Shown piece by piece: positions 32,419 through 54,088 of a stretch of DNA of 64,000 bases (the first letter of the stretch is position 1; each line of letters opens with the position of its first letter). The stretch comes from Verrucomicrobiota bacterium (GTDB taxonomy: Bacteria > Verrucomicrobiota > Verrucomicrobiia > Limisphaerales > AAA164-E04). The notes below the pieces were generated by a model that ran no database searches, was not told the DNA's origin, and saw only the letters and a program-made list of their open reading frames with translations. The translations under genes were made by a program, and so were the position numbers. The DNA lies in NCBI GenBank assembly GCA_047947115.1, contig CP170459.1, positions 4,256,001 to 4,320,000 on the forward strand. The letters run 5' to 3'.

Positions 32419-34944
32419 TCAGGGTTTGCGGCGTTCAATCATGGATTTGACTCCGTCCACATCCAGGCGCTTTACGGGAAGCTCCCATCCAAGAGTGTCC
32501 CCGTTGGGTTGAAATCCGTTGCCGTCCACATCCACATAGATGGGATTATGATAGGCACAAGGTTTCCAGGAAGCCTGGGAACTGGTGCCATATCCAATGG
32601 ATAGATCTTCATTTTCCCCATACGCGACCACCATCAAATGGCTGTCTTCACTGAGTGGAACTTCAATGGTTTGTTCAAAAGCAATAAGTCCTTTCTGAAA
32701 CATGTCCGGATGTGAAGCGGCAGTATAGTTGAGTGAAGGAACCTTTCGACTGTTCACGAGCACCTGCACCCTATCAATCTTGATCCAGTCAGTGCATTGA
32801 ACCTTGACTTTCACTCTGATGGAACCCTGGGCTCGTGTGAAACCTCCGCTGATTTGACCATCCTCCGTTTCCACCTCCAGAAAGGGGCCCGTAGTCATCA
32901 TCATTCGACCCGCTTTGGCATTACGAACAATTTCCTGCCAGTCAATTTCAGAAGGATTGTCTGTTGAGGATGGCACGTAGCTCCTCCATCCACCGACTCC
33001 GTTGCCATGAACCGAATGGGCATCTGAAACGGCAATGCTCCACATCTTGCGTCCCGTATTGAGCAATTGTCGCCAGACAAATTCACGGTGATTTCTGACA
33101 ATCGGTTGCTTGTTGGCGGCCTCGGCGATGTAATAAGGCGCATCTGCAAGGATGTTCAATCCCCAAACCTCGGCGGCATCCACCATATTTTCGAGCCCTA
33201 CATACCCCAGGTCCGGGCGCCCGTCACCGTTTCGATCAACAAAATCCGCCACTGTATCAGGGTGATTGAGATGCACCCAGCGTTCTGCCATGGCCCCCTG
33301 GAAATCACGTAATACAATGGCATTAAGTCGCGGATCTTTCTGCCACTGCGGGGCACCATGGTCTTGCGTGAAAGGTGTGGGCGTAAATGGAAAGGCATTG
33401 AAATGCGCACCGGATCCGGTGAGTTCGAGCCCTGGAACACTTAGCATTTCCTGCGCTAATCCAAGTTTTTCAATATGAGGTGTCCAGTCGTATAAACGAT
33501 TGTGCTCCGTTGTCGGAACGAACTCCACCTGCTCGACGGCTAGGTTGATGATGCGATCATCAGTCTTGGTGTTGTTGTCTCCGCTTGGAGTCGAGTGATT
33601 GTGAAAATCGGTACTAACCCAACCGGTCGTATCCACCAGTCTTGTCAGCTGCCCCCCGAACTCCAAAGTGGTTTCAGGCCTAAGCTCAATGATCCTGCGA
33701 AGGTGACTGTATTCGATCCCGTGAGTGACGGTGATTTGATATTTTCCGGGCGTCACCTGAACACTGAACGCTCCATTTTCTGAATGGTATTGATCCACGC
33801 ATCCATGGGCTCGGTTTGCCGGTCCGAGATTGGGCGTTTTTGTATCATCCAATCCTTTGAATTGCACCTTGCAGGGAATAGATCGACCATGTGCATCCCG
33901 AATGTCAAAATCAATCTTTGCCGGAGCATTCATGGATGCCATCAATGGTGTGGAATCATTGGCTACAATGACAACATTTCTGGTCAGGGGGGATCGGCCA
34001 CGATCCTGAACCTCCACCTCGTATTCTCCAGATGGAAGCTGCAATGTAAACCGTCCGTCCTTGTCTGGATATGCGGTCAGAGCCGATTCCCCACGTTTGA
34101 GCGTCAGGGATGCCGTGCCAATACCACTGCCAGTCGAATCGCTGACAACACCGGTGAGTGTTCCAGCATCCGATTTTAATGTTGCGAGAAAACCAAATGC
34201 CTGGGCTGGCGAAGCACCCACCGCCACGGCCCTGGCCCACTCAACTCGTTGACCCGGCTCAATGCTGAGAGGTTCATCCCCAGGCATGATGCATCCATCC
34301 AAGTCCATCCACGCCGTTGCATATCCGCATTTATCGGCGGGATCAACGGAATCCCAAACGGTGATTCCCGCGACCTTTTTCTTGTCGTTGACGGGTTTCC
34401 ACTGATCAATGGGATCAAATGCCACAGTTTGGTCTGATTGATTATGCACATGTGTCGAGATGAGCAAACCATGCCAGTCATCTCTCAAACGGTAACGATG
34501 AACGATTTCCAATCCATCATTACTCGCAGCGGATACCAACACTTCAATGACAGCCTCCCCTGATTCCCCGGAATCCACCACCCTGACATAAGTTACCGGA
34601 CCACGCTGATTGGAGGGTGAGAAAACGGTGATTTGATCGTTGTCTGTGCCTCTGAGAGTCAAATCATACAAACAACCAGGACTGACAGCATCCCACCAGC
34701 CACCCATATCAGCCTTACGCAAGGGGGCATCACTGGAAATAACCGCTTCGATCAGATTATTCCGCATGAGAAAATCCCCTACAATGCCGTCAGCTTCTTT
34801 GCCACCGGGCAGCAAACCAGTTTGCGACTTCCCAATTTCAAGGGCTTCGGGAGAAGCCACAGACGACAGAACACTCAGTAAGAACAGAAAAACCGGAAGA
34901 AACGGAGATATATGAACACGCAAAGAGGAAGAAACGAATTTCAT
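32419..34944 (-). CDS. Secreted PHP-like (CehA/McbA-type) metallohydrolase
   Basis: DFHNHS, TEHN, HFNAFP, NHPD, SDAH; carboxypeptidase-regulatory-like domain; start uncertain. Confidence 0.8.
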   Translation of the reverse strand: MKFVSSSLRVHISPFLPVFLFLLSVLSSVASPEALEIGKSQTGLLPGGKEADGIVGDFLMRNNLIEAVISSDAPLRKADMGGWWDAVSPGCLYDLTLRGTDNDQITVFSPSNQRGPVTYVRVVDSGESGEAVIEVLVSAASNDGLEIVHRYRLRDDWHGLLISTHVHNQSDQTVAFDPIDQWKPVNDKKKVAGITVWDSVDPADKCGYATAWMDLDGCIMPGDEPLSIEPGQRVEWARAVAVGASPAQAFGFLATLKSDAGTLTGVVSDSTGSGIGTASLTLKRGESALTAYPDKDGRFTLQLPSGEYEVEVQDRGRSPLTRNVVIVANDSTPLMASMNAPAKIDFDIRDAHGRSIPCKVQFKGLDDTKTPNLGPANRAHGCVDQYHSENGAFSVQVTPGKYQITVTHGIEYSHLRRIIELRPETTLEFGGQLTRLVDTTGWVSTDFHNHSTPSGDNNTKTDDRIINLAVEQVEFVPTTEHNRLYDWTPHIEKLGLAQEMLSVPGLELTGSGAHFNAFPFTPTPFTQDHGAPQWQKDPRLNAIVLRDFQGAMAERWVHLNHPDTVADFVDRNGDGRPDLGYVGLENMVDAAEVWGLNILADAPYYIAEAANKQPIVRNHREFVWRQLLNTGRKMWSIAVSDAHSVHGNGVGGWRSYVPSSTDNPSEIDWQEIVRNAKAGRMMMTTGPFLEVETEDGQISGGFTRAQGSIRVKVKVQCTDWIKIDRVQVLVNSRKVPSLNYTAASHPDMFQKGLIAFEQTIEVPLSEDSHLMVVAYGENEDLSIGYGTSSQASWKPCAYHNPIYVDVDGNGFQPNGDTLGWELPVKRLDVDGVKSMIERRKP

Positions 34945-35017
34945 GATGAGAAGCATACTGCCCTGAGAAACCCACAAAACCAAGTCAATCCTGTGACAAT
35001 TTTCTCATATTTAGGAA

Positions 35018-35033
35018 TGGCATCAAGCTTGCG
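35018..35033 (+). promoter_or_regulatory. sigma54 (-24/-12) promoter
   Basis: TGGCAT-CAAGC-TTGCG with exact GG-N10-GC spacing. Confidence 0.65.
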
Positions 35034-35043
35034 TTCTATCAAA

Positions 35044-35286
35044 TGAGACAGGAACGGATAGTACGAACAAAACATAGCAATGAGGATCAAAGGAGAAAAA
35101 GACACAAAACTGTTCCGTCCATTTAGCTAGCCGACAAACCATCTAGCCATCCAAGTTGGACACCCAGCATACAAAAAACGGGGAATCGCACAGGTAGCCG
35201 CACCTACCTTCCTCGTCCGCACGCCAACTCACCGACTTGGAGTCGCGCGCACCGACTCCCATCTCTTCGGAGATGGGAGTTTCTTT
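35044..35286 (+). ncRNA. Candidate sigma54-dependent structured small RNA
   Basis: Lies between the sigma54 motif and a + strand terminator; several stems with G:U pairs; four CGCAC motifs; no convincing ORF. Confidence 0.5.
35255..35286 (+). terminator. Intrinsic terminator with cUUCGg loop
   Basis: actcccatctc-ttcg-gagatgggagt followed by ttcttt; U-tract on the + strand only. Confidence 0.85.
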
Positions 35287-35318
35287 AATTAAGCCAACAG
35301 AGGGCAAAGGTGAAACTT

Positions 35319-35717
35319 TCACCGGGATGATGCCGGAGTGGGTTGCTGGGGCACGATGTCCACCTTGCCTGTTTGAGGATGATAGGTTACCACCATTCCA
35401 TAAGGAGCAGTGGGTTCCTTGGCTAGCAGTCCCTCTCGAACCAAAACGGACAAACTCTCAGGATTGCGCCCCTCCAGAATCCGGTATTCCTGCAACGCCT
35501 TGTTCACCTGGGACAGTTCGAGGGTTTTATTGGCCATCTTGTTTGCGGTATTGACGGCGCCAAGATAATCGACCGGAGCGGTCAAAGGATTACCGGAAGA
35601 TTCACTGCTTTCCGCCTGTTTGCTGGTTTCCGGAGAAGTCACTGCTTCATCCTTTTTTCCACAGGCAGACAACAGAATCAGGCAAAGTAGCGAAAAGATT
35701 GATCCGATATGATTCAT
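35319..35717 (-). CDS. Hypothetical lipoprotein
   Basis: LLSAC lipobox; GNPLTAPVDYLGA; abuts the upstream AsmA-like gene. Confidence 0.7.
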   Translation of the reverse strand: MNHIGSIFSLLCLILLSACGKKDEAVTSPETSKQAESSESSGNPLTAPVDYLGAVNTANKMANKTLELSQVNKALQEYRILEGRNPESLSVLVREGLLAKEPTAPYGMVVTYHPQTGKVDIVPQQPTPASSR

Positions 35718-40196: not shown

Positions 40197-40289
40197 AAGT
40201 TTCCAAAATGCCCTGCAAATCAAAAAAATTCAAGCCAAGGCTGAAATCCCATTGCCTTGATGAACTTGAACCGCCTAGTCTGGACCCAC

Positions 40290-41537
40290 ATGAACACGAC
40301 AGCTCCGAAGTCGGCAACATTTCAAGTCAACGAAATCAACTACAACGTTCCATCATACCCGATCGCGGTCATATGTCTGGACGGATCGGCGGATGCGTAT
40401 CTGGACGCTGCCCTGGCCCGGGATGCCATGCCCAACCTAAAGCGCATCAGCGTGGAAGGTCATCGAGCCCAGGCACGCGGAGCGTTGCCATCATTCACCA
40501 ACGTCAATAACGCCTCCATCGTCACAGGTCGCCCCCCTTCTCATCACGGCATCTGTGGCAATTACTTTTTAAATCCGGACACAGGCGAGGAGGTGATGAT
40601 GAACTCCGCTTCCTTCCTCAGAGTTTCCACCATCATGTCCGCCGCTGCCAAAGCCGGACGAAAGGTCGGGGTCGTGACCGCCAAGGAAAAATTAAGAGAT
40701 ATTTTTGCGCATCAACTGGATGGCATTGCATTCTCATCCGAAAAAGCCAATCAGGCAACGCTGGAAAAACACGGTATCAACGATGTGGAAGAACTGGTTG
40801 GCAAACCCACCCCACATATTTACAGTGGTGAAGCCAGCGTTTACGTTCTCGAGGCAGGTGTAGCCCTGCTCCGGTCGGGTCGTTCGGATTTCCTGTATTT
40901 GTCCACCACTGACTACATGCAGCACACCTATGAACCTGAGATGCCGGAATCCATCGAGTTTTACCGTCAACTGGACAACGCCATCGGCGATTTACTGGCA
41001 TTGGGCGCACGAGTCGGGATCACGGCGGACCATGGTATGAATGCCAAGCAAAAGCCCGATGGATCACCCAACGTTATTTACCTCGAAACAGCTTTGAAGG
41101 AGACCTTCGGAGACGGTTTTGCCGTGATTCTGCCCATTACGGATCCGTATGTCGTCCACCACGGTGCCCTCGGTTCCTTTGCCGTGGTGCATTGCCCCGA
41201 AAACAGCAACATCGATCAAGTGGCAGCATGGTGCAGTCAACAGGATGGAGTCACCGAGGTCCTGGATAAAAAACTGGCAGCTCAAAAACTGGAGCTGCCC
41301 GAAGATCGCATGGGTGATCTGGTGGTCATGAGCGGCCGCGATGTGGTGCTCGGACGCACACCGGCACACCACGATCTCAGCGCACTCAAAGTGGGATTAC
41401 GTTCACATGGCGGAAGGTATGAAGAAATTGTCCCGTTTGTCTTTTCGCACCCGCTCAAAAGCGATTATCAGACCAGACTGCTGGGGGATCCCCGAAATTT
41501 TGAGATCTTCGATTACACCATCAACGGTTTGCAATAA
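40290..41537 (+). CDS. phnA: Phosphonoacetate hydrolase
   Basis: ICLDG, LPSFTNVNN, YLSTTDYMQH, TADHGMNAK, ILPITDPYVVHHGALGS, LRSHGG. Confidence 0.92.
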   Translation: MNTTAPKSATFQVNEINYNVPSYPIAVICLDGSADAYLDAALARDAMPNLKRISVEGHRAQARGALPSFTNVNNASIVTGRPPSHHGICGNYFLNPDTGEEVMMNSASFLRVSTIMSAAAKAGRKVGVVTAKEKLRDIFAHQLDGIAFSSEKANQATLEKHGINDVEELVGKPTPHIYSGEASVYVLEAGVALLRSGRSDFLYLSTTDYMQHTYEPEMPESIEFYRQLDNAIGDLLALGARVGITADHGMNAKQKPDGSPNVIYLETALKETFGDGFAVILPITDPYVVHHGALGSFAVVHCPENSNIDQVAAWCSQQDGVTEVLDKKLAAQKLELPEDRMGDLVVMSGRDVVLGRTPAHHDLSALKVGLRSHGGRYEEIVPFVFSHPLKSDYQTRLLGDPRNFEIFDYTINGLQ

Positions 41538-41570
41538 GCCTTTTCCCGAACTTATATCGATCAAAAAGAC

Positions 41571-42992
41571 ATGGCATCCACTCACCACAGTTACCTGGCA
41601 GGACAAGCGATTCAAAGCGATCGACACGTCGATGTATATAATCCATACAACAACGAACACATCGCCCAAGTCACAGAATGCTCAGCCGTCCACACACAAC
41701 AGGCCATCGAAAAGGCTTTGGGCCTTGGCACTCGCTTGACGCGCTACGAACGCTTTGAAATCCTGGACAAAACCAGAAGAGCGCTCCTGGCCGAGAAAGA
41801 ATCCTTTGCCAAACTGATCACTTCCGAAGCAGGTCTATGCCTCCGCGAAACACTTTACGAAGTCGGGCGCGCGTGCGATGTGCTTCAGTTCTCAGCCATG
41901 GAGGCACTCAAGGATGATGGACAGGTCTTCAGTTGCGACGTATCTCCACAGGGCAAGGCTCGAAAAATCTTTACTCTGAGAGAACCGTTAAACCTCGCGG
42001 TCGCGATTACCCCTTTCAACCACCCGCTCAACCAGGTCGCACACAAATTGGGTCCTGCCATTGCGGCCGGAACCCCCATCATTCTCAAACCTTCCGAAAA
42101 AACACCGCTGAGCGCGATCCGTCTGGCGGAGTTGTTATACGAAAACGGACTTCCTGGTGAAATGTTGAGCGTGCTCCTCGGGCCGACTCAGGAAGTTGCG
42201 GAGCCATTGGTCTTGGATGAAAGAGTGGAATTGGTCAGTTTCACCGGCAGTGTGGCCGTTGGAAAACACATCGCCAAAACCGCCGGATACAAGAAGCTTG
42301 TTCTGGAGCTGGGTGGCAACGACCCCCTCATCATTCTGGAAGATGCGGACCTGGAAATGGCCGTGCACCTGGCTTGTGAAGGAGCCTTCCGCAACTCCGG
42401 ACAACGCTGCACAGCGGTCAAACGCATTTTGGTTCAAAGATCCATCCTCGACACATTCACCAAAGCGTTTGTCAAACAAGCCGCCACATACACATCAGGT
42501 GATCCAAGTTCCATGGACACCCGGGTGGGGACGGTCATCGATGAGGCATCGGCTGAACGCTTGTCTCAAGCAGTTGAAAAAGCCGTCGCCCAAGGTGCAA
42601 AGGTACTCCTGGGTGGCGGACGTGAGGGAGCGTTGTTGGAACCCACCGTCATTGCCGACGTCCCGCGTGACGCCGACATGGTGACTTCCGAATCGTTCGG
42701 CCCCCTGGCCCCTCTGCTCGCTGTGGACGACATGGATGATGCCATTCGACTGACCAACTCCACACCTTACGGTCTTTCATCCGGCGTGGTGACCAACAAT
42801 ATGGAACAGGCGCTCAAAGCGGTGCGTGAATTAAAATGTGGAACGGTCAATATCAACGAAGTTCCCGGATACCGCATCGAATGTTCCCCATTCGGAGGCA
42901 TCAAGGACTCCGGTCTCGGCATCAAGGAAGGGGTCATCGAAGCGATCAAATGCATGACCACCGTAAAAACTTTCTCGCTCCCATGGGGGTAA
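41571..42992 (+). CDS. phnY: Phosphonoacetaldehyde dehydrogenase
   Basis: ALDH motifs (ITPFNHPLNQ, LELGGND, NSGQRCTA, ESFGP, PFGGIKDSG); adjacent to phnA. Confidence 0.85.
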   Translation: MASTHHSYLAGQAIQSDRHVDVYNPYNNEHIAQVTECSAVHTQQAIEKALGLGTRLTRYERFEILDKTRRALLAEKESFAKLITSEAGLCLRETLYEVGRACDVLQFSAMEALKDDGQVFSCDVSPQGKARKIFTLREPLNLAVAITPFNHPLNQVAHKLGPAIAAGTPIILKPSEKTPLSAIRLAELLYENGLPGEMLSVLLGPTQEVAEPLVLDERVELVSFTGSVAVGKHIAKTAGYKKLVLELGGNDPLIILEDADLEMAVHLACEGAFRNSGQRCTAVKRILVQRSILDTFTKAFVKQAATYTSGDPSSMDTRVGTVIDEASAERLSQAVEKAVAQGAKVLLGGGREGALLEPTVIADVPRDADMVTSESFGPLAPLLAVDDMDDAIRLTNSTPYGLSSGVVTNNMEQALKAVRELKCGTVNINEVPGYRIECSPFGGIKDSGLGIKEGVIEAIKCMTTVKTFSLPWG

Positions 42993-49459: not shown

Positions 49460-52400
49460 TCACGAACGTTTGCGGGGCCTCCCCGCCCTCAACACCCGCA
49501 ACGAAAATCCCCTCCCATTCTCATAAGGTTCCACCCGGGCGTTGACCTCCAGCACCGGATACCTCACCGTGGCCAATCCGTAACTCCGATACGTCGAGGC
49601 AAACAACTCCGTCTCCACCATCCCCGTCCAGTCCGCCAGGGTCAGGAATTTCATGGGCTCACCGGTAACCTGATGATGCAATCGCTGCTCAATCACCAAG
49701 CCACAGGTGGTGATTTCCTGTCCGATATAATGTCCCAGGCGTTTCACCGGACAATAGGTCTCCCACGCCACCTCCGGATGCAGATCCAGCAGATGACCCG
49801 ACACCGGGAACCCCAGAGCCTCGTCCTCCCATTCCAGACGCTGTTGCCATGAAGGCTCCTGCAACGTGGTTTTCGGCAAACGCTCCGTGTCCGGCGGCGG
49901 CAACAACCAGCCCTGATCCGGACATTCCCGATCCGAAAAAGTCCGGTTCAAAAACTGTGACACCCAGAACTGGGACGTACGCGTCTTGCCAAACGCATCA
50001 AATGCCCCCACACGAATCAAGCGTTCCATCTCATCCGCCAGCGGAAACACCCGCCGGTGGAAATCAGCCATCGAAACAAACTTTCCCTTCGCACGTTCGT
50101 TGACCACCCGTTGCACCGTTTGATCCGTCAGGCCCTTGATCGCGCTCAACGGCACGCGAATGCCCCGCTTCGCCAGGCGATGACGTTGTGATGTCTGACG
50201 GGACTCGGCAGGATCCCCCAAACGCTCCACCTGATAACCGGGGCCCGGGGCTTGGATCGAAGGCGGCAACAGAGGAATCCCCAGACGATCGCACTCCAGC
50301 ACATAAACCAGCGGATGATAAAACCCCTTCCCTTGCGTCAACACCGAGGCCATGAACTCGGCGGGAAAATAACACTTCATCCAGGCCGACTGATATGCCT
50401 CCACCCCGTAGGCCGTGCTGTGCGCCTTGCAGAACGCGTAGCCATTGAAGCCGCTGACCAGTTCCCACACCTCTTGAATTTTCTCCTCTCCATGCCCGCG
50501 CTTGAGCGCCGAGGCGAAAAACTCGCGACGAATCTCCTCAATCGTGGCCGCCTTCCGCTTATTCAACGCACGCCGCAGCACATCCGCACGCCCCGGTGGC
50601 AGCCCGGCAAACCGCTCGCTGATCTGCAGAATGTGTTCCTCATAAACGACCAGACCAAAGGTGCTCCGCAAACAATCGGCCAACGAAGGATGCGGATAGA
50701 CAGGTTCCTCCATCTTCTGATAACGGCGAGTGAAACGAAGTTTCTTCTGTTCATTGGCCGCCCCCGGGCGAATCACCGACACGATGGCCACCAGCCCGTC
50801 AATCTCCCGTACATTACACATCCTGCAGAGACTCACCATGGCCGGACTCTCGATATGATGCACCGCGCGCGCGCCGCCCCCGGCAATCATCGCCCAGACC
50901 TTCGGGTCCGTCCACGGATCGGTCTCCGGCGCTGCGATCGTCTCGGGAGGCCCATCTTCACCCGGCTGCATGATGCGCCACTGACATCGATCCAGATCCA
51001 TCCGAATCCCGCGCACCTGCAACATCTCCCCGACATCCCGCATCACCGACAAGCCGCCCTGGGCCAGGATATCCATCTTGACCAGACCGATTTCTTCCAC
51101 GGCATCCATGTCGAAATGCGTCGTCGGGTATCCCTTGTTCGCCTTGAACGTCGGGGTGAGATGATGCATCGGTTGACGGGACAACACCACGCCACAGGGA
51201 TGCATCTTCGGATAACGCGGAAACCCGTCCAGAAACTCCGCCATCCGCAAAGCCGTCGAATAGGGTTCTTCCTGGAGTGGCAGATCGCGGCATTCCTGAT
51301 TCCGGGCAATGAAGCTGCTCATGTCCCGCGCGCCTGCATAAGGAAACCGTTCGGTTACCCGCCGGATCTGATATTCCGAAACGCCCAATACCTTGGCGAC
51401 ATCCCCCATCGCTCCGCGTGATTTGTAGGTCGAAAAACCACCCACCACGGCACAGTATTTCTCACCGTATTTGCGGAAGATCAGGTCAATCACATCATCC
51501 TTCCGGTCATGAGGAAAATCCACATCGATATCCGGTAACTTGTGCAAGGCCATGCGGTCCTTGTTCAGAAAACGTTTAAAATACAGTTCAAACCGAATCG
51601 GACACACATCACTGATTCGAAGGCAATAACACACCAACGAATCCGCCGCGCTCCCCCGTGTGATCCAATGAATCCCCGCCGCCCGGCAATCCTGCAACAG
51701 ATTCCACACCACCAGGAAATATTCCTCGTAGCCCACATCATGAATGATCGCCAGTTCCTCCTCCACCTGACGTTGCACACGTTCGCGCCGGGACGCCGGA
51801 TAACGTTCCGCCAGTCCCTTCATCACCAGCTTGCGCAGAAAAGATCGCGGCGACGAACCATCCGGCGGACGGTAATCCGGAAACTGCGGCGGCCCCAACG
51901 GCATCTGGAAATCACGACAACGCTCTGCAATCTCCCGGGTGCGTTCAAACACTTGCGGATGCTCCTTCCACAAATCCCGCCAGGTGTGCATGACCGGATA
52001 ATGCAAGGTCCCGCTCTGATCCTTGTCGGGATGACGCTGCTTCAGCAAGGTCAGGGTGCGAATGGACTGCACCACATCGTATTTCCAATAATCTTTCGGC
52101 AAGGCATAATGCACCGGCGTCACCGCCACGACAGGACTCTGTTGATCGGCAAATTTTTTCAATACCCCGGGATGTTCCGCCCCGCGGTAAAACCGGTTTT
52201 CAAAAAAGGATTCAAGTCGGGGATCCTTTCCAATCGCGATCAAACCATCCGTCGGAACCGAAGCCAATTGATGCCGCGTCCAATGCCCGTGTCCGCTCAA
52301 ACGCCGGATCAGAGCCGTCGATTCCTGCGAGGCATCGGAAACCGGTTTCTTCCGCCCTTTCCGTCCGCGTTGCAAAGGCACGGGCGGCGGTTTCTCGACG

Positions 52401-54088
52401 GGTGATTTGGACGAAAGCAGTTGGCACAGGTTGCGGTAACCGGTTTCGTTCTGCGCATATAGCAGCAAGGGCTCGCCATCCACACCGATCTCCGCCCCGA
52501 TGACCGGTTGAATCCCCTGTTCTTTGGCGCATTGATAAAACGGCACCGCGCCATGCAGGTTCCCCTGGTCCACCATGGCCACGGCGGGTTGCTGTTGCTC
52601 GCAGGCCAAGCGCACGACATCCTCTACCGACAAGGCCGAGTTCAGAAAGGAGTAATAACTTTTGACGTTCAACGCCACCGGCGTCACCACACGACGACGC
52701 ACCGGGGTTGACCGGGAAACCGGTGCCCGATCACCGCGTCCAGCATCCACCGCATCCCCATAGCGGGATGCGCGCTCGGTCATGACTTGTCCCGTAGCCG
52801 GGGAGGGTGGATACACTCGTATCTGCCGTCCTGTGACGCCATCCGTTCGTTCGCGAGAAGGTTTTTCCGATTCTTCGCGTCCGGGGTTTTGTTCGTGTTG
52901 TTTGACCGCGTCCCGCAAAATGAAATCATGCCCACGCAGAATCGCACCGGGACCGCACCGACGCTTCAGATCATCCACGATCCGCGCCAGGCGACGGCGT
53001 GATTCACGTTGTTCGGAAGCACGGTCGAGGGTCAGTTCGCTGCGATAAAAACTGTCGTAAATATTGGACAACTTGAGCGACACCAAACGCAGACTCACCC
53101 GCCGCCGCCAGGCCTTGCGCAACAGGATGCCCAAGCGACCGTAGATATCGGTCTCCAGATCGGTGGGTTCCTCCAGACTTTCCCCGCATTGATCCTCCAT
53201 CATGTCGTTGTAACGCACCTTGACGGTCAGGGTGCGGACGCATTTGCCATCCGCACGCACCTTGGCCATGAGTGTGTCGGCCATGCGCCGCAAGGTGGCC
53301 TCAATGCGATCCTCATCGGTCTGATCTTCTCCGAACGTTTCCTGTTTCCCATACGACTTGGCCGGTGCGGATACCGCCACGATGGGGCGATCATCCACCC
53401 CGTCGGCATACTCCCGGATGCGCGGCGCAATGTTCCCCAGAATCAAATGCAACAGATCCGTCGAAGTCGCCGAAATCTGCCCGATCCGGGCCAACCCGGC
53501 GGCATTCAAACGCGACGCCGTCTTGGCTCCGATCCCCGGCAACCAATGGTTGGGCAGCGGATGCAGAAACGGAATTTCATACCCCTTCTCGATCTCCTGA
53601 AATGCGGCGGGTTTGTGCAGTTTGGACGCGATCTGGCTGATCAGTTTGTTCGTGCCGATTCCTTCGCTGACCGTAATTTTCAGCGATTGACCAATGGCTT
53701 TGCGAATGATCTGGGCGATTTCGGACGCCGGTTTGCGCACGCCGGAAAGGTCGAAGTAACCTTCATCGATCGAAGTGATCTCCACATCCGGCGTAAAATC
53801 ATAGGCATACGAAAACATCCAGCGGGAGAAGCGTTCGTATTTCTCGTAATCCCCCGGCAACAGAATCAGTTTCGGACACAACTTCCGCGCCTGTACCGTC
53901 GGCATCGGAGTATAAATCCCGAATTTCCGCGCCTCATACGACGCCGCGGCGATGATCCCCCTTTTCTCGCCCCCCACCGCCACCGGCTTGCCCCGCAACC
54001 GCGTATCAGACGCCTGCTCCACCGAAGCAAAAAAAGCGTCCGCATCCAAATGAACCATCGTTCGTCGCAATGGAGAAGCACCTGCCAT
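49460..54088 (-). CDS. Fused DNA polymerase IV (DinB, Y-family) and DnaE2-like DNA polymerase III alpha
   Basis: HLDADAFFASVEQ, SYEAR, SIDEGY, little-finger domain; linker; degenerate PHP, RGSAA, PDIDVDF, HPCGVV, KMDIL, FNGYAFCKAHS, OB fold. Confidence 0.92.
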   Translation of the reverse strand: MAGASPLRRTMVHLDADAFFASVEQASDTRLRGKPVAVGGEKRGIIAAASYEARKFGIYTPMPTVQARKLCPKLILLPGDYEKYERFSRWMFSYAYDFTPDVEITSIDEGYFDLSGVRKPASEIAQIIRKAIGQSLKITVSEGIGTNKLISQIASKLHKPAAFQEIEKGYEIPFLHPLPNHWLPGIGAKTASRLNAAGLARIGQISATSTDLLHLILGNIAPRIREYADGVDDRPIVAVSAPAKSYGKQETFGEDQTDEDRIEATLRRMADTLMAKVRADGKCVRTLTVKVRYNDMMEDQCGESLEEPTDLETDIYGRLGILLRKAWRRRVSLRLVSLKLSNIYDSFYRSELTLDRASEQRESRRRLARIVDDLKRRCGPGAILRGHDFILRDAVKQHEQNPGREESEKPSRERTDGVTGRQIRVYPPSPATGQVMTERASRYGDAVDAGRGDRAPVSRSTPVRRRVVTPVALNVKSYYSFLNSALSVEDVVRLACEQQQPAVAMVDQGNLHGAVPFYQCAKEQGIQPVIGAEIGVDGEPLLLYAQNETGYRNLCQLLSSKSPVEKPPPVPLQRGRKGRKKPVSDASQESTALIRRLSGHGHWTRHQLASVPTDGLIAIGKDPRLESFFENRFYRGAEHPGVLKKFADQQSPVVAVTPVHYALPKDYWKYDVVQSIRTLTLLKQRHPDKDQSGTLHYPVMHTWRDLWKEHPQVFERTREIAERCRDFQMPLGPPQFPDYRPPDGSSPRSFLRKLVMKGLAERYPASRRERVQRQVEEELAIIHDVGYEEYFLVVWNLLQDCRAAGIHWITRGSAADSLVCYCLRISDVCPIRFELYFKRFLNKDRMALHKLPDIDVDFPHDRKDDVIDLIFRKYGEKYCAVVGGFSTYKSRGAMGDVAKVLGVSEYQIRRVTERFPYAGARDMSSFIARNQECRDLPLQEEPYSTALRMAEFLDGFPRYPKMHPCGVVLSRQPMHHLTPTFKANKGYPTTHFDMDAVEEIGLVKMDILAQGGLSVMRDVGEMLQVRGIRMDLDRCQWRIMQPGEDGPPETIAAPETDPWTDPKVWAMIAGGGARAVHHIESPAMVSLCRMCNVREIDGLVAIVSVIRPGAANEQKKLRFTRRYQKMEEPVYPHPSLADCLRSTFGLVVYEEHILQISERFAGLPPGRADVLRRALNKRKAATIEEIRREFFASALKRGHGEEKIQEVWELVSGFNGYAFCKAHSTAYGVEAYQSAWMKCYFPAEFMASVLTQGKGFYHPLVYVLECDRLGIPLLPPSIQAPGPGYQVERLGDPAESRQTSQRHRLAKRGIRVPLSAIKGLTDQTVQRVVNERAKGKFVSMADFHRRVFPLADEMERLIRVGAFDAFGKTRTSQFWVSQFLNRTFSDRECPDQGWLLPPPDTERLPKTTLQEPSWQQRLEWEDEALGFPVSGHLLDLHPEVAWETYCPVKRLGHYIGQEITTCGLVIEQRLHHQVTGEPMKFLTLADWTGMVETELFASTYRSYGLATVRYPVLEVNARVEPYENGRGFSLRVLRAGRPRKRS

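Follow-up and report, generated by a model that had tools for sequence, protein, structure and literature searches.

A candidate sigma54-type small RNA of a marine Verrucomicrobiota bacterium with a conserved 5' loop complementary to the translation start of a PEP-CTERM gene

The Locus and Its Genomic Surroundings

The window analysed here is a stretch of 64,000 nt from a Verrucomicrobiota genome (G000) that consists of one contig of 6.08 Mb and is 95.8% complete. The public sequencing runs that contain this stretch are mainly estuary, seawater and marsh metagenomes. The element of interest lies between two genes of the minus strand, both of them outside the unit: a divergent gene for a metallohydrolase of the CehA/McbA family (32419–34983; NF038032, above cut-off) and a convergent gene for a lipoprotein-like protein of 132 aa (35319–35717), which stands behind an AsmA/DUF748 gene. 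A family search with the 132-aa protein gave no match, and no viral relative was found when we looked for one. A homologous element is present in one relative, G001; the other G and L labels used below denote compared genomes and loci.

Among the known structured RNAs, tmRNA, the RNase P motif and a 6S-like RNA were located elsewhere in G000, and a search of this genome with the SRP RNA motif gave no match. The 6S-like RNA (L029; G000:C1:1157649-1157830, minus strand) scored 44.3 bits, just below the Rfam cut-off of 46.4. In G010, the place upstream of the hydrolase orthologue where G000 has the element is occupied, on the opposite strand, by what we take by eye to be an RNase P RNA look-alike (L165).

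A Sigma54-Type Promoter and an Intrinsic Terminator Delimit the Predicted RNA

A preliminary description had proposed that the intergenic region encodes a sigma54-driven structured sRNA with repeated CGCAC motifs. This candidate stands: the unit is of sigma54 type, is predicted to read on the plus strand, is structured and non-coding, carries conserved CGCAC repeats and matches no Rfam family. The promoter sequence, TGGCAT-N5-TTGCG, is present at 35018–35033 on the plus strand, and the spacing from its −12 element predicts a +1 at about 35044. In G001 the −24 TGGCA and the −12 TGC are kept and 4 of the 16 bases differ. RpoN is encoded in G000, together with 12 matches to sigma54-activator domains, 8 of them strong. 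The strict sigma54 consensus occurs at 21 sites in G000, which is similar to the numbers for versions with wrong spacing (15–36); 13 of the 21 are intergenic, compared with 1–7 of the 15–36 control sites. With a looser pattern, 20 intergenic sigma54-type sites were found; several long, apparently secreted proteins are encoded behind them, as are what we take to be PII and glutamine synthetase.

Nine nucleotides upstream of the −24 element there is a TCTCAT motif (35003–35008, plus strand), which is kept in G001 and which is also found 8–9 nt upstream at 2 others of the 20 intergenic sites of G000. It recurs 7–10 nt upstream of sigma54-type −24 elements in G000, G001 and G007, the sites being that of the window, G000:C1 near 1739050 and 1041150 (minus strand), and L302, L304, L305 and L306. 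TCTCAT could be a site shared for a regulator or a bending protein, and it possibly marks a subclass of promoters. A segment behind one sigma54-type site (G000:C1:1738674-1739000, minus strand) contains a signal-peptide-like frame that has no in-frame ATG and has ACG at its likely start, as well as an upstream ORF of 7 codons.

The terminator had also been described correctly. It comprises a 12-pair hairpin (35254–35281) with a cUUCGg loop and a U-rich tail that is present on the plus strand only, and extends over 35254–35287. The hairpin is 96% identical in G001, where the U-tail is weaker than in G000. The predicted RNA would thus span 35044–35287 on the plus strand, about 245 nt. A search of the window against Rfam, 6S included, gave no match at gathering score and only chance matches at E values up to 10; the same search with the G001 homologue gave only chance matches at E up to 5. 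A promoter and a terminator of its own and a non-coding body, as judged from sequence and conservation, are what is expected of a trans-acting base-pairing sRNA.

The Predicted Fold

The whole unit folds better than its shuffled versions (z = −3.5), but without the terminator z falls to about −0.5 on both strands: the body by itself is no more stable than shuffled sequence, and the terminator accounts for the significance of the whole-unit fold. In the predicted fold, the 5' domain (35047–35119) consists of a stem, 35047–35057/35110–35119, that closes a purine-rich loop of 52 nt. This stem, which encloses the A-rich part of the RNA, was absent from the stems listed in the preliminary description. 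A weak stem of five pairs follows in the G000 fold (35126–35130/35143–35147). The 3' domain (35150–35241) has an outer stem, 35150–35156/35235–35241, and then a large internal loop; its inner part is built of a stem (35179–35184/35210–35215), a 7-nt bulge, a second stem (35192–35197/35204–35209) and a hexaloop. A long stem proposed earlier, 35150–35159/35232–35241, is the minimum-energy form in G001, but not in G000, where it lies 0.1 kcal/mol above the minimum-energy fold.

Comparison with G001 left most of the pairs intact. The 5' stem (10 pairs) shows one double-sided change, two G-U-type changes and no broken pair; in the weak stem one pair is broken and another has a G-U change; and in the 3' domain the pair closing the hexaloop is changed on both sides. 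Among all 46 proposed pairs there are 2 double-sided changes, 5 swaps to or from G-U and 1 broken pair. The covariation check suggested for this structure did not reach significance, as 56 of 500 shuffles scored as high. The strand is another matter: the five one-sided changes are swaps between Watson–Crick and G-U pairs, valid on the plus strand only, and the cUUCGg hairpin with its U-tail lies on that strand, which favours transcription from the plus strand.

Conservation and Distribution

A BLAST search over 61 relatives gave a single real match, the G001 homologue, which is 81% identical and lies at the same genomic place. G001 keeps the promoter, the stems and all four CGCAC motifs, the conservation in relatives on which the original proposal depended. 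Over the RNA, G000 and G001 are 78% identical, compared with 43–48% at the third codon positions of the neighbouring genes and 32% past the terminator. At the level of nucleotide identity, this shows the predicted RNA to be conserved above the neutral level.

Other searches added little. A covariance model built from the two sequences matched in 2 of 22 genomes of the family and in 1 of 151 genomes of the order, the latter being G000. In the synteny of 22 lipoprotein loci the element was found only in G000 and G001, and no copy was seen by eye at three other hydrolase loci. A pattern for the hairpin had no match in viral contigs; in metagenomes it matched 59 stretches, of which 2 were real, both of them G001-like. 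A seed pattern matched 22 stretches in species genomes, one of which was real and identical to G001 over the RNA. When the sigma54-site pattern was run over the family and 50 loci from about 100 matches were inspected, there was no homologue among the matches listed, and neither further seed-based patterns nor a promoter-extension pattern in five genomes revealed a new RNA. The element is single-copy in G000, and the RNA was found in only two species-level lineages, related and marine. Since all other searches for homologues were negative, the RNA appears to be young or fast-evolving.

Complementarity Between the 5' Loop and a PEP-CTERM Translation Start

Five segments of the RNA were compared with 4083 crudely called start regions of G000. 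The start region of a gene (G000:C1:424473-424937, minus strand) for a 154-aa protein, apparently with a signal peptide and with a PEP-CTERM tail that scored above cut-off, ranked first of about 4080 for the seeds of both species, with −31.7 and −36.8 kcal/mol. Two helices are predicted, separated by a 4x5 internal loop: 35054–35068 forms 15 Watson–Crick pairs with positions +9 to +23 of the mRNA, and 35073–35078 forms 6 Watson–Crick pairs with positions −3 to +3, which include the AUG. The costs of opening were 4.7/4.0 kcal/mol for the RNA and 8.8/6.8 kcal/mol for the mRNA. Given this antisense match, the RNA would switch off the surface protein, which is predicted to be among the most abundant of the cell, and because no Shine–Dalgarno-like run was seen by eye in the target leader, coverage of the AUG is a plausible way of blocking.

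The bases of both helices are all kept in G001 (15/15 and 6/6). Within the loop, conservation is thus 21/21 for the paired bases, compared with 2/4 for the linker and 17/31 for the rest. The linker of G001 has, in addition, gained one base, and as its changes add one pair on each side, the G001 RNA would pair better (23 pairs). The predicted interaction gains weight from the exact coincidence of complementary and invariant bases and from their position over the start codon. Base-pairing sRNAs carry an accessible, conserved seed that matches a translation start elsewhere in the genome, a trait found here in two lineages only.

The statistical support is of uneven strength. A two-helix score of 21, as in G000, was reached by 5 of 1000 shuffles and by 8 of 600 stretches drawn at random from the genome, and the G001 score of 23 by 1 of 500 shuffles; the statistic was designed after the match had been seen, so the chance of a two-helix match, about 0.5–1%, is a post hoc figure. 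Duplex energy by itself was not significant (1 of 12 shuffled seeds was as good), and a perfect 15-nt match arose in 124 of 2000 shuffles of the whole RNA. In reciprocal BLAST searches with the target start region, the RNA locus was the best non-self match in G001 (E 0.015) and tied as best in G000 (E 1.3).

The target orthologue of G001 has an identical site and agrees with the G000 gene throughout its first 13 codons, after which there are many changes. The first 38 codons of the partner gene in the same operon are identical as well, and the site is also found in three genomes of another genus (13–14 of 15 positions Watson–Crick, the rest G-U), in which the RNA was not detected. Conservation on the target side need not stem from the RNA, then, because the site is kept without it and the 5' end of the partner is equally invariant. 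Covariation between RNA and target is not available as support from the only two species-level lineages found.

The target operon (L008 1059-2204; G000:C1:424473-425618, minus strand) apparently consists of two genes, the PEP-CTERM gene being the second. The first encodes an uncharacterised protein of 212 aa, for which a family search gave no match and the Atlas gave only Verrucomicrobiota clusters. By the fraction of optimal codons, a proxy for codon bias calculated over the 4083 crude gene calls, the 212-aa partner ranked 1st and the PEP-CTERM gene 2nd, above an EF-Tu-like gene, which suggests a very high expression of both.

The CGCAC Repeats

Four CGCAC motifs start at 35187, 35199, 35218 and 35248, that is, within 66 nt, as reported initially. 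Such a cluster of CGCAC is unique in the 6.08-Mb genome on either strand. However, when all 1024 5-mers were considered, 1840 four-in-66-nt clusters were counted, with a median of 1 each; as comparable clusters are not rare, this one alone proves little. Each motif had been placed in a bulge or loop. This is clearly so for the first (35187–35191, in the bulge) and the second (35199–35203, in the hexaloop), which are conserved and have an unpaired probability of about 1.0 in both species. The third (35218–35222, on the 3' side of the internal loop) and the fourth (35248–35252, in the linker before the terminator) are kept in G001 but are partly paired in the G000 ensemble.

All four motifs are kept in G001 (20/20 bases), which has two extra copies and hence six; in the 3' half, about one 5-nt window in three is invariant between the two genomes. 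Short words of the CAC or GCAC type, displayed in loops, are frequent targets of RRM, KH and cold-shock domains. G000 encodes one RRM protein (RRM-1), three cold-shock proteins and two KH proteins of the KhpA/B type as candidates, and protein binding is our best guess at the role of the module. The single RRM gene (G000:C1:3644693-3644905), whose product has a Gly/Arg-rich tail, stands immediately upstream of a gene for a cold-shock protein (L031 1119-1758; G000:C1:3644311-3644950, minus strand).

The proposal of a protein sponge has to be weighed in its strong form, in which the main job of the RNA is to titrate a protein, as CsrB/RsmZ titrate CsrA, and the antisense match is due to chance or is a trace of origin. 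The fully kept motifs, the extra copies in G001 (given the conserved background of the 3' half), the two copies displayed in bulge and loop, and the available RRM, cold-shock and KH proteins speak for it. As the main function, however, the sponge found no support, as no titrated protein emerged. There was no match in the 95.8% complete genome for CsrA (PF02599; controls positive 3/14), and none in G000 for Hfq (PF17209; 5/14) or RapZ (PF03668; 7/14), nor was ProQ found in it. CGCAC was not enriched in the sense orientation of mRNA leaders (93 sense versus 99 antisense in 2801 leaders), and no cluster of it preceded the RRM and cold-shock genes. Moreover, just four to six sites on one single-copy RNA would be available, and the invariance of exactly the 21 complementary bases would be left unexplained. 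We consider a sponge as the main function improbable.

RNA Evidence and Other Readings of the Locus

Six RNA runs contain about half of the sampled words of 34900–35400. The shares of words were 0.80–1.00 in 14 DNA runs and 0.47–0.63 in the 6 RNA runs, a comparison that is only a partial control. In all of four metatranscriptomes a contig starts at 35055 (three runs, possibly of one campaign) or at 35066 (one run), without strand information, and the cover at 34785–35054 is zero. These contigs extend through the convergent minus-strand gene. The element is the highest-depth piece in each RNA run, although contig depth cannot rank expression. Such a contig start is compatible with an RNA 5' end close to the predicted +1; as the contigs are strandless, it could also be the 3' end of a minus-strand transcript.

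According to such a minus-strand reading there is no plus-strand RNA, and the region is either the 3' untranslated end of the asmA/lipoprotein operon or the leader of the hydrolase gene. It would account for contigs that run from the element into the minus-strand gene, as well as for the lower raw folding energy of the minus strand (−84 versus −67 kcal/mol), and at this hairpin the operon itself lacks a terminator. Against this, folding z-scores slightly favour the plus strand (−3.2/−1.9 versus −2.2/−1.8), the five G-U-type changes work on that strand only, and a conserved sigma54-type site lies 11 nt before the contig edge. Furthermore, a seed read from the minus strand would copy the target rather than complement it, and the lipoprotein gene is followed by different sequence in 20 other genomes of the family. 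We hold this reading to be quite unlikely.

We give similarly little credence to a real sRNA with another main function, in which the CGCAC loops would be seeds aimed at further mRNAs, or further targets would exist for the 5' loop, and the PEP-CTERM match would be a relic of an inverted duplication. Seeds in multiple C-rich loops are known from sRNAs of Gram-positive bacteria (PMC12205990), and the target site predates the RNA. Still, of the four other RNA segments three stayed within the range of shuffled controls; the fourth, an anti-Shine–Dalgarno-like 3' strand, exceeded it (−39.9 versus −31.6 to −36.6 for controls) but is paired in the fold and thus inaccessible. A second site, on the operon partner, ranked 3rd in G000 and only 74th with the G001 RNA, and a neutral relic would not have remained identical at 21 of 21 positions.

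The CGCAC words could also be DNA sites of a DNA-binding protein. Across 151 genomes of the order, a triple-CGCAC pattern and its reversed control occurred at about the same frequency; 15 loci were inspected among the matches listed, with 132 more matches. At L086, L087, L088, L089, L090, L091, L092 and L093, from seven genomes of the same order, there are arrays of 4–6 direct CGCACA repeats, spaced alternately by about 10–11 and 18–19 nt and located 100–150 nt before a stretch that resembles a tRNA 3' end; a whole tRNA was present in 0 of 8 loci, and L090 has cargo of mobile-element type alongside. These arrays look like sites for recombination proteins at the ends of integrative elements. 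In G071 (e.g., L096) a 32-nt unit with three CGCAC occurs at at least 12 places and is probably a dispersed repeat. The similar word and the roughly similar spacing (12, 19 and 30 at our locus) speak for a link with the arrays. Against it, the element has no tRNA or att-like sequence, its CGCAC motifs lie inside stems with compensatory changes, and the arrays have no sigma54-type site. We therefore regard the DNA-site reading as very unlikely. Hardly credible, finally, is a leaderless ORF of 27 codons at 35043 as the product, an outcome raised from the start, since its ATG at the predicted +1 is conserved but G001 has a stop at codon 3, which contradicts this ORF as the product, and a one-base insertion further on.

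Comparison with Known sRNA Systems

The closest parallel is found in Bacteroides, a genus that lacks Hfq and CsrA (PMC13370968). The FopS sRNAs of Bacteroides thetaiotaomicron are described as base-pairing sRNAs that pair at the start codons of mRNAs for surface proteins and are counteracted by their RRM partner RbpB (PMC11697453). Our RNA would resemble FopS/GibS in its trans-acting pairing by the start codon of a cell-surface mRNA, in a host where Hfq was not found and an RRM-1 protein is encoded. FopS differ in having 14 paralogues of about 65–70 nt, a housekeeping promoter and a free 5' seed, whereas the RNA described here is about 245 nt long, has a sigma54-type promoter, and combines a two-part seed displayed in a loop with a domain of repeated motifs. 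It is also single-copy in G000, unlike the multicopy family that shares the R1 seed, as judged by copy number.

With the Qrr sRNAs of Vibrio, the RNA shares a sigma54-type promoter, an intrinsic terminator and predicted repression by pairing at the translation start. Qrr sRNAs are Hfq-dependent; here Hfq was not found, there is no Rfam match, and target and phylum are different. MicF, MicA and RybB are a further parallel, as sRNAs of an alternative sigma factor or stress that shut off an abundant protein of the envelope by pairing with the AUG and the first codons. They require Hfq and target porins, unlike this RNA, which has a PEP-CTERM target in a genome where no Hfq was found.

Other systems are more distant. 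The repetition of a short motif across loops and linkers is reminiscent of CsrB/RsmZ and of CrcZ, which is sigma54-dependent, but the motif is CGCAC instead of GGA or AAnAAnAA, a base-pairing seed is present, and neither CsrA nor Hfq was found. Nine GGA motifs occur at 35031–35300, mostly in stems, two of them in the poorly conserved part of the purine-rich loop; the element does not have the many conserved loop GGA of CsrB/RsmZ, and G000 has no match for their cognate CsrA/RsmA or for the Hfq on which CrcZ and Qrr rely. GlmY, a sigma54-dependent sRNA, is similar in being structured and of like size class, but RapZ was not found here and there is no Rfam match. The long hairpin with a central bubble of 6S RNA (RF00013) was not matched here, the sole 6S-like match of the genome lying elsewhere (44.3 bits). 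By this analysis, the RNA would work like FopS, Qrr and MicF-type RNAs while standing outside their families, and it lacks distinguishing traits of CsrB, CrcZ, GlmY and 6S.

Proposed Mechanism and Implications

Taken together, these results indicate that the element is probably a real sRNA that has not been described. We think it reasonably probable that this sRNA is young and sigma54-driven and that it represses a major coat protein by base-pairing without Hfq; its CGCAC module probably binds a protein. An enhancer-binding protein would activate the sigma54 promoter, and the RNA would be transcribed from the plus strand. Its 5' loop would pair over the AUG and then extend the duplex, opening four pairs of the 5' stem; as the complementarity suggests, the pairing would block initiation on the PEP-CTERM cistron, and the cell coat would be remodelled when the sigma54 programme is on. 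The least supported step is a further one, in which the 3' CGCAC domain might bind an RNA-binding protein that stabilises the RNA or replaces Hfq. A fuller scheme, for a two-module sRNA in a lineage without Hfq, CsrA or ProQ, is offered only tentatively: one module, the 5' loop, would silence the major coat protein with the PEP-CTERM tail, and the other, the CGCAC domain, would load or titrate an RNA-binding protein of eukaryotic type (RRM, cold-shock or KH) that takes the place of Hfq in a sequence-specific way, so that a sigma54 signal would be coupled to a swap of the coat.

The literature search, which had subscription papers and supplements outside its scope, found no base-pairing sRNA described for Verrucomicrobiota and none acting on a PEP-CTERM gene. 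It also found no description of this RNA, although supplementary tables of candidate RNAs, outside that scope, could contain the motif. If the proposed reading is true, it would provide a concrete sRNA–target pair in Verrucomicrobiota, with a reach limited to two related marine lineages, and the CGCAC repeats could serve as bait for a protein that supports sRNA action without Hfq. In Haft et al. (PMC1569441), PEP-CTERM genes outside Proteobacteria are said to lack a sigma54/PrsR site and to require other regulators. Under the proposed reading, sigma54 would act on such a gene indirectly and negatively, via an RNA.

Two observations concern other parts of the window. An ORF of 1542 aa (49460–54088, minus strand) is DNA polymerase IV-like at residues ~8–390 and then resembles the DnaE-type polymerase III alpha subunit at ~471–1524, and is apparently a fusion of two polymerases. 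On the plus strand, at 40257–42992, there are genes for phosphonoacetate hydrolase and phosphonoacetaldehyde dehydrogenase, both above cut-off.
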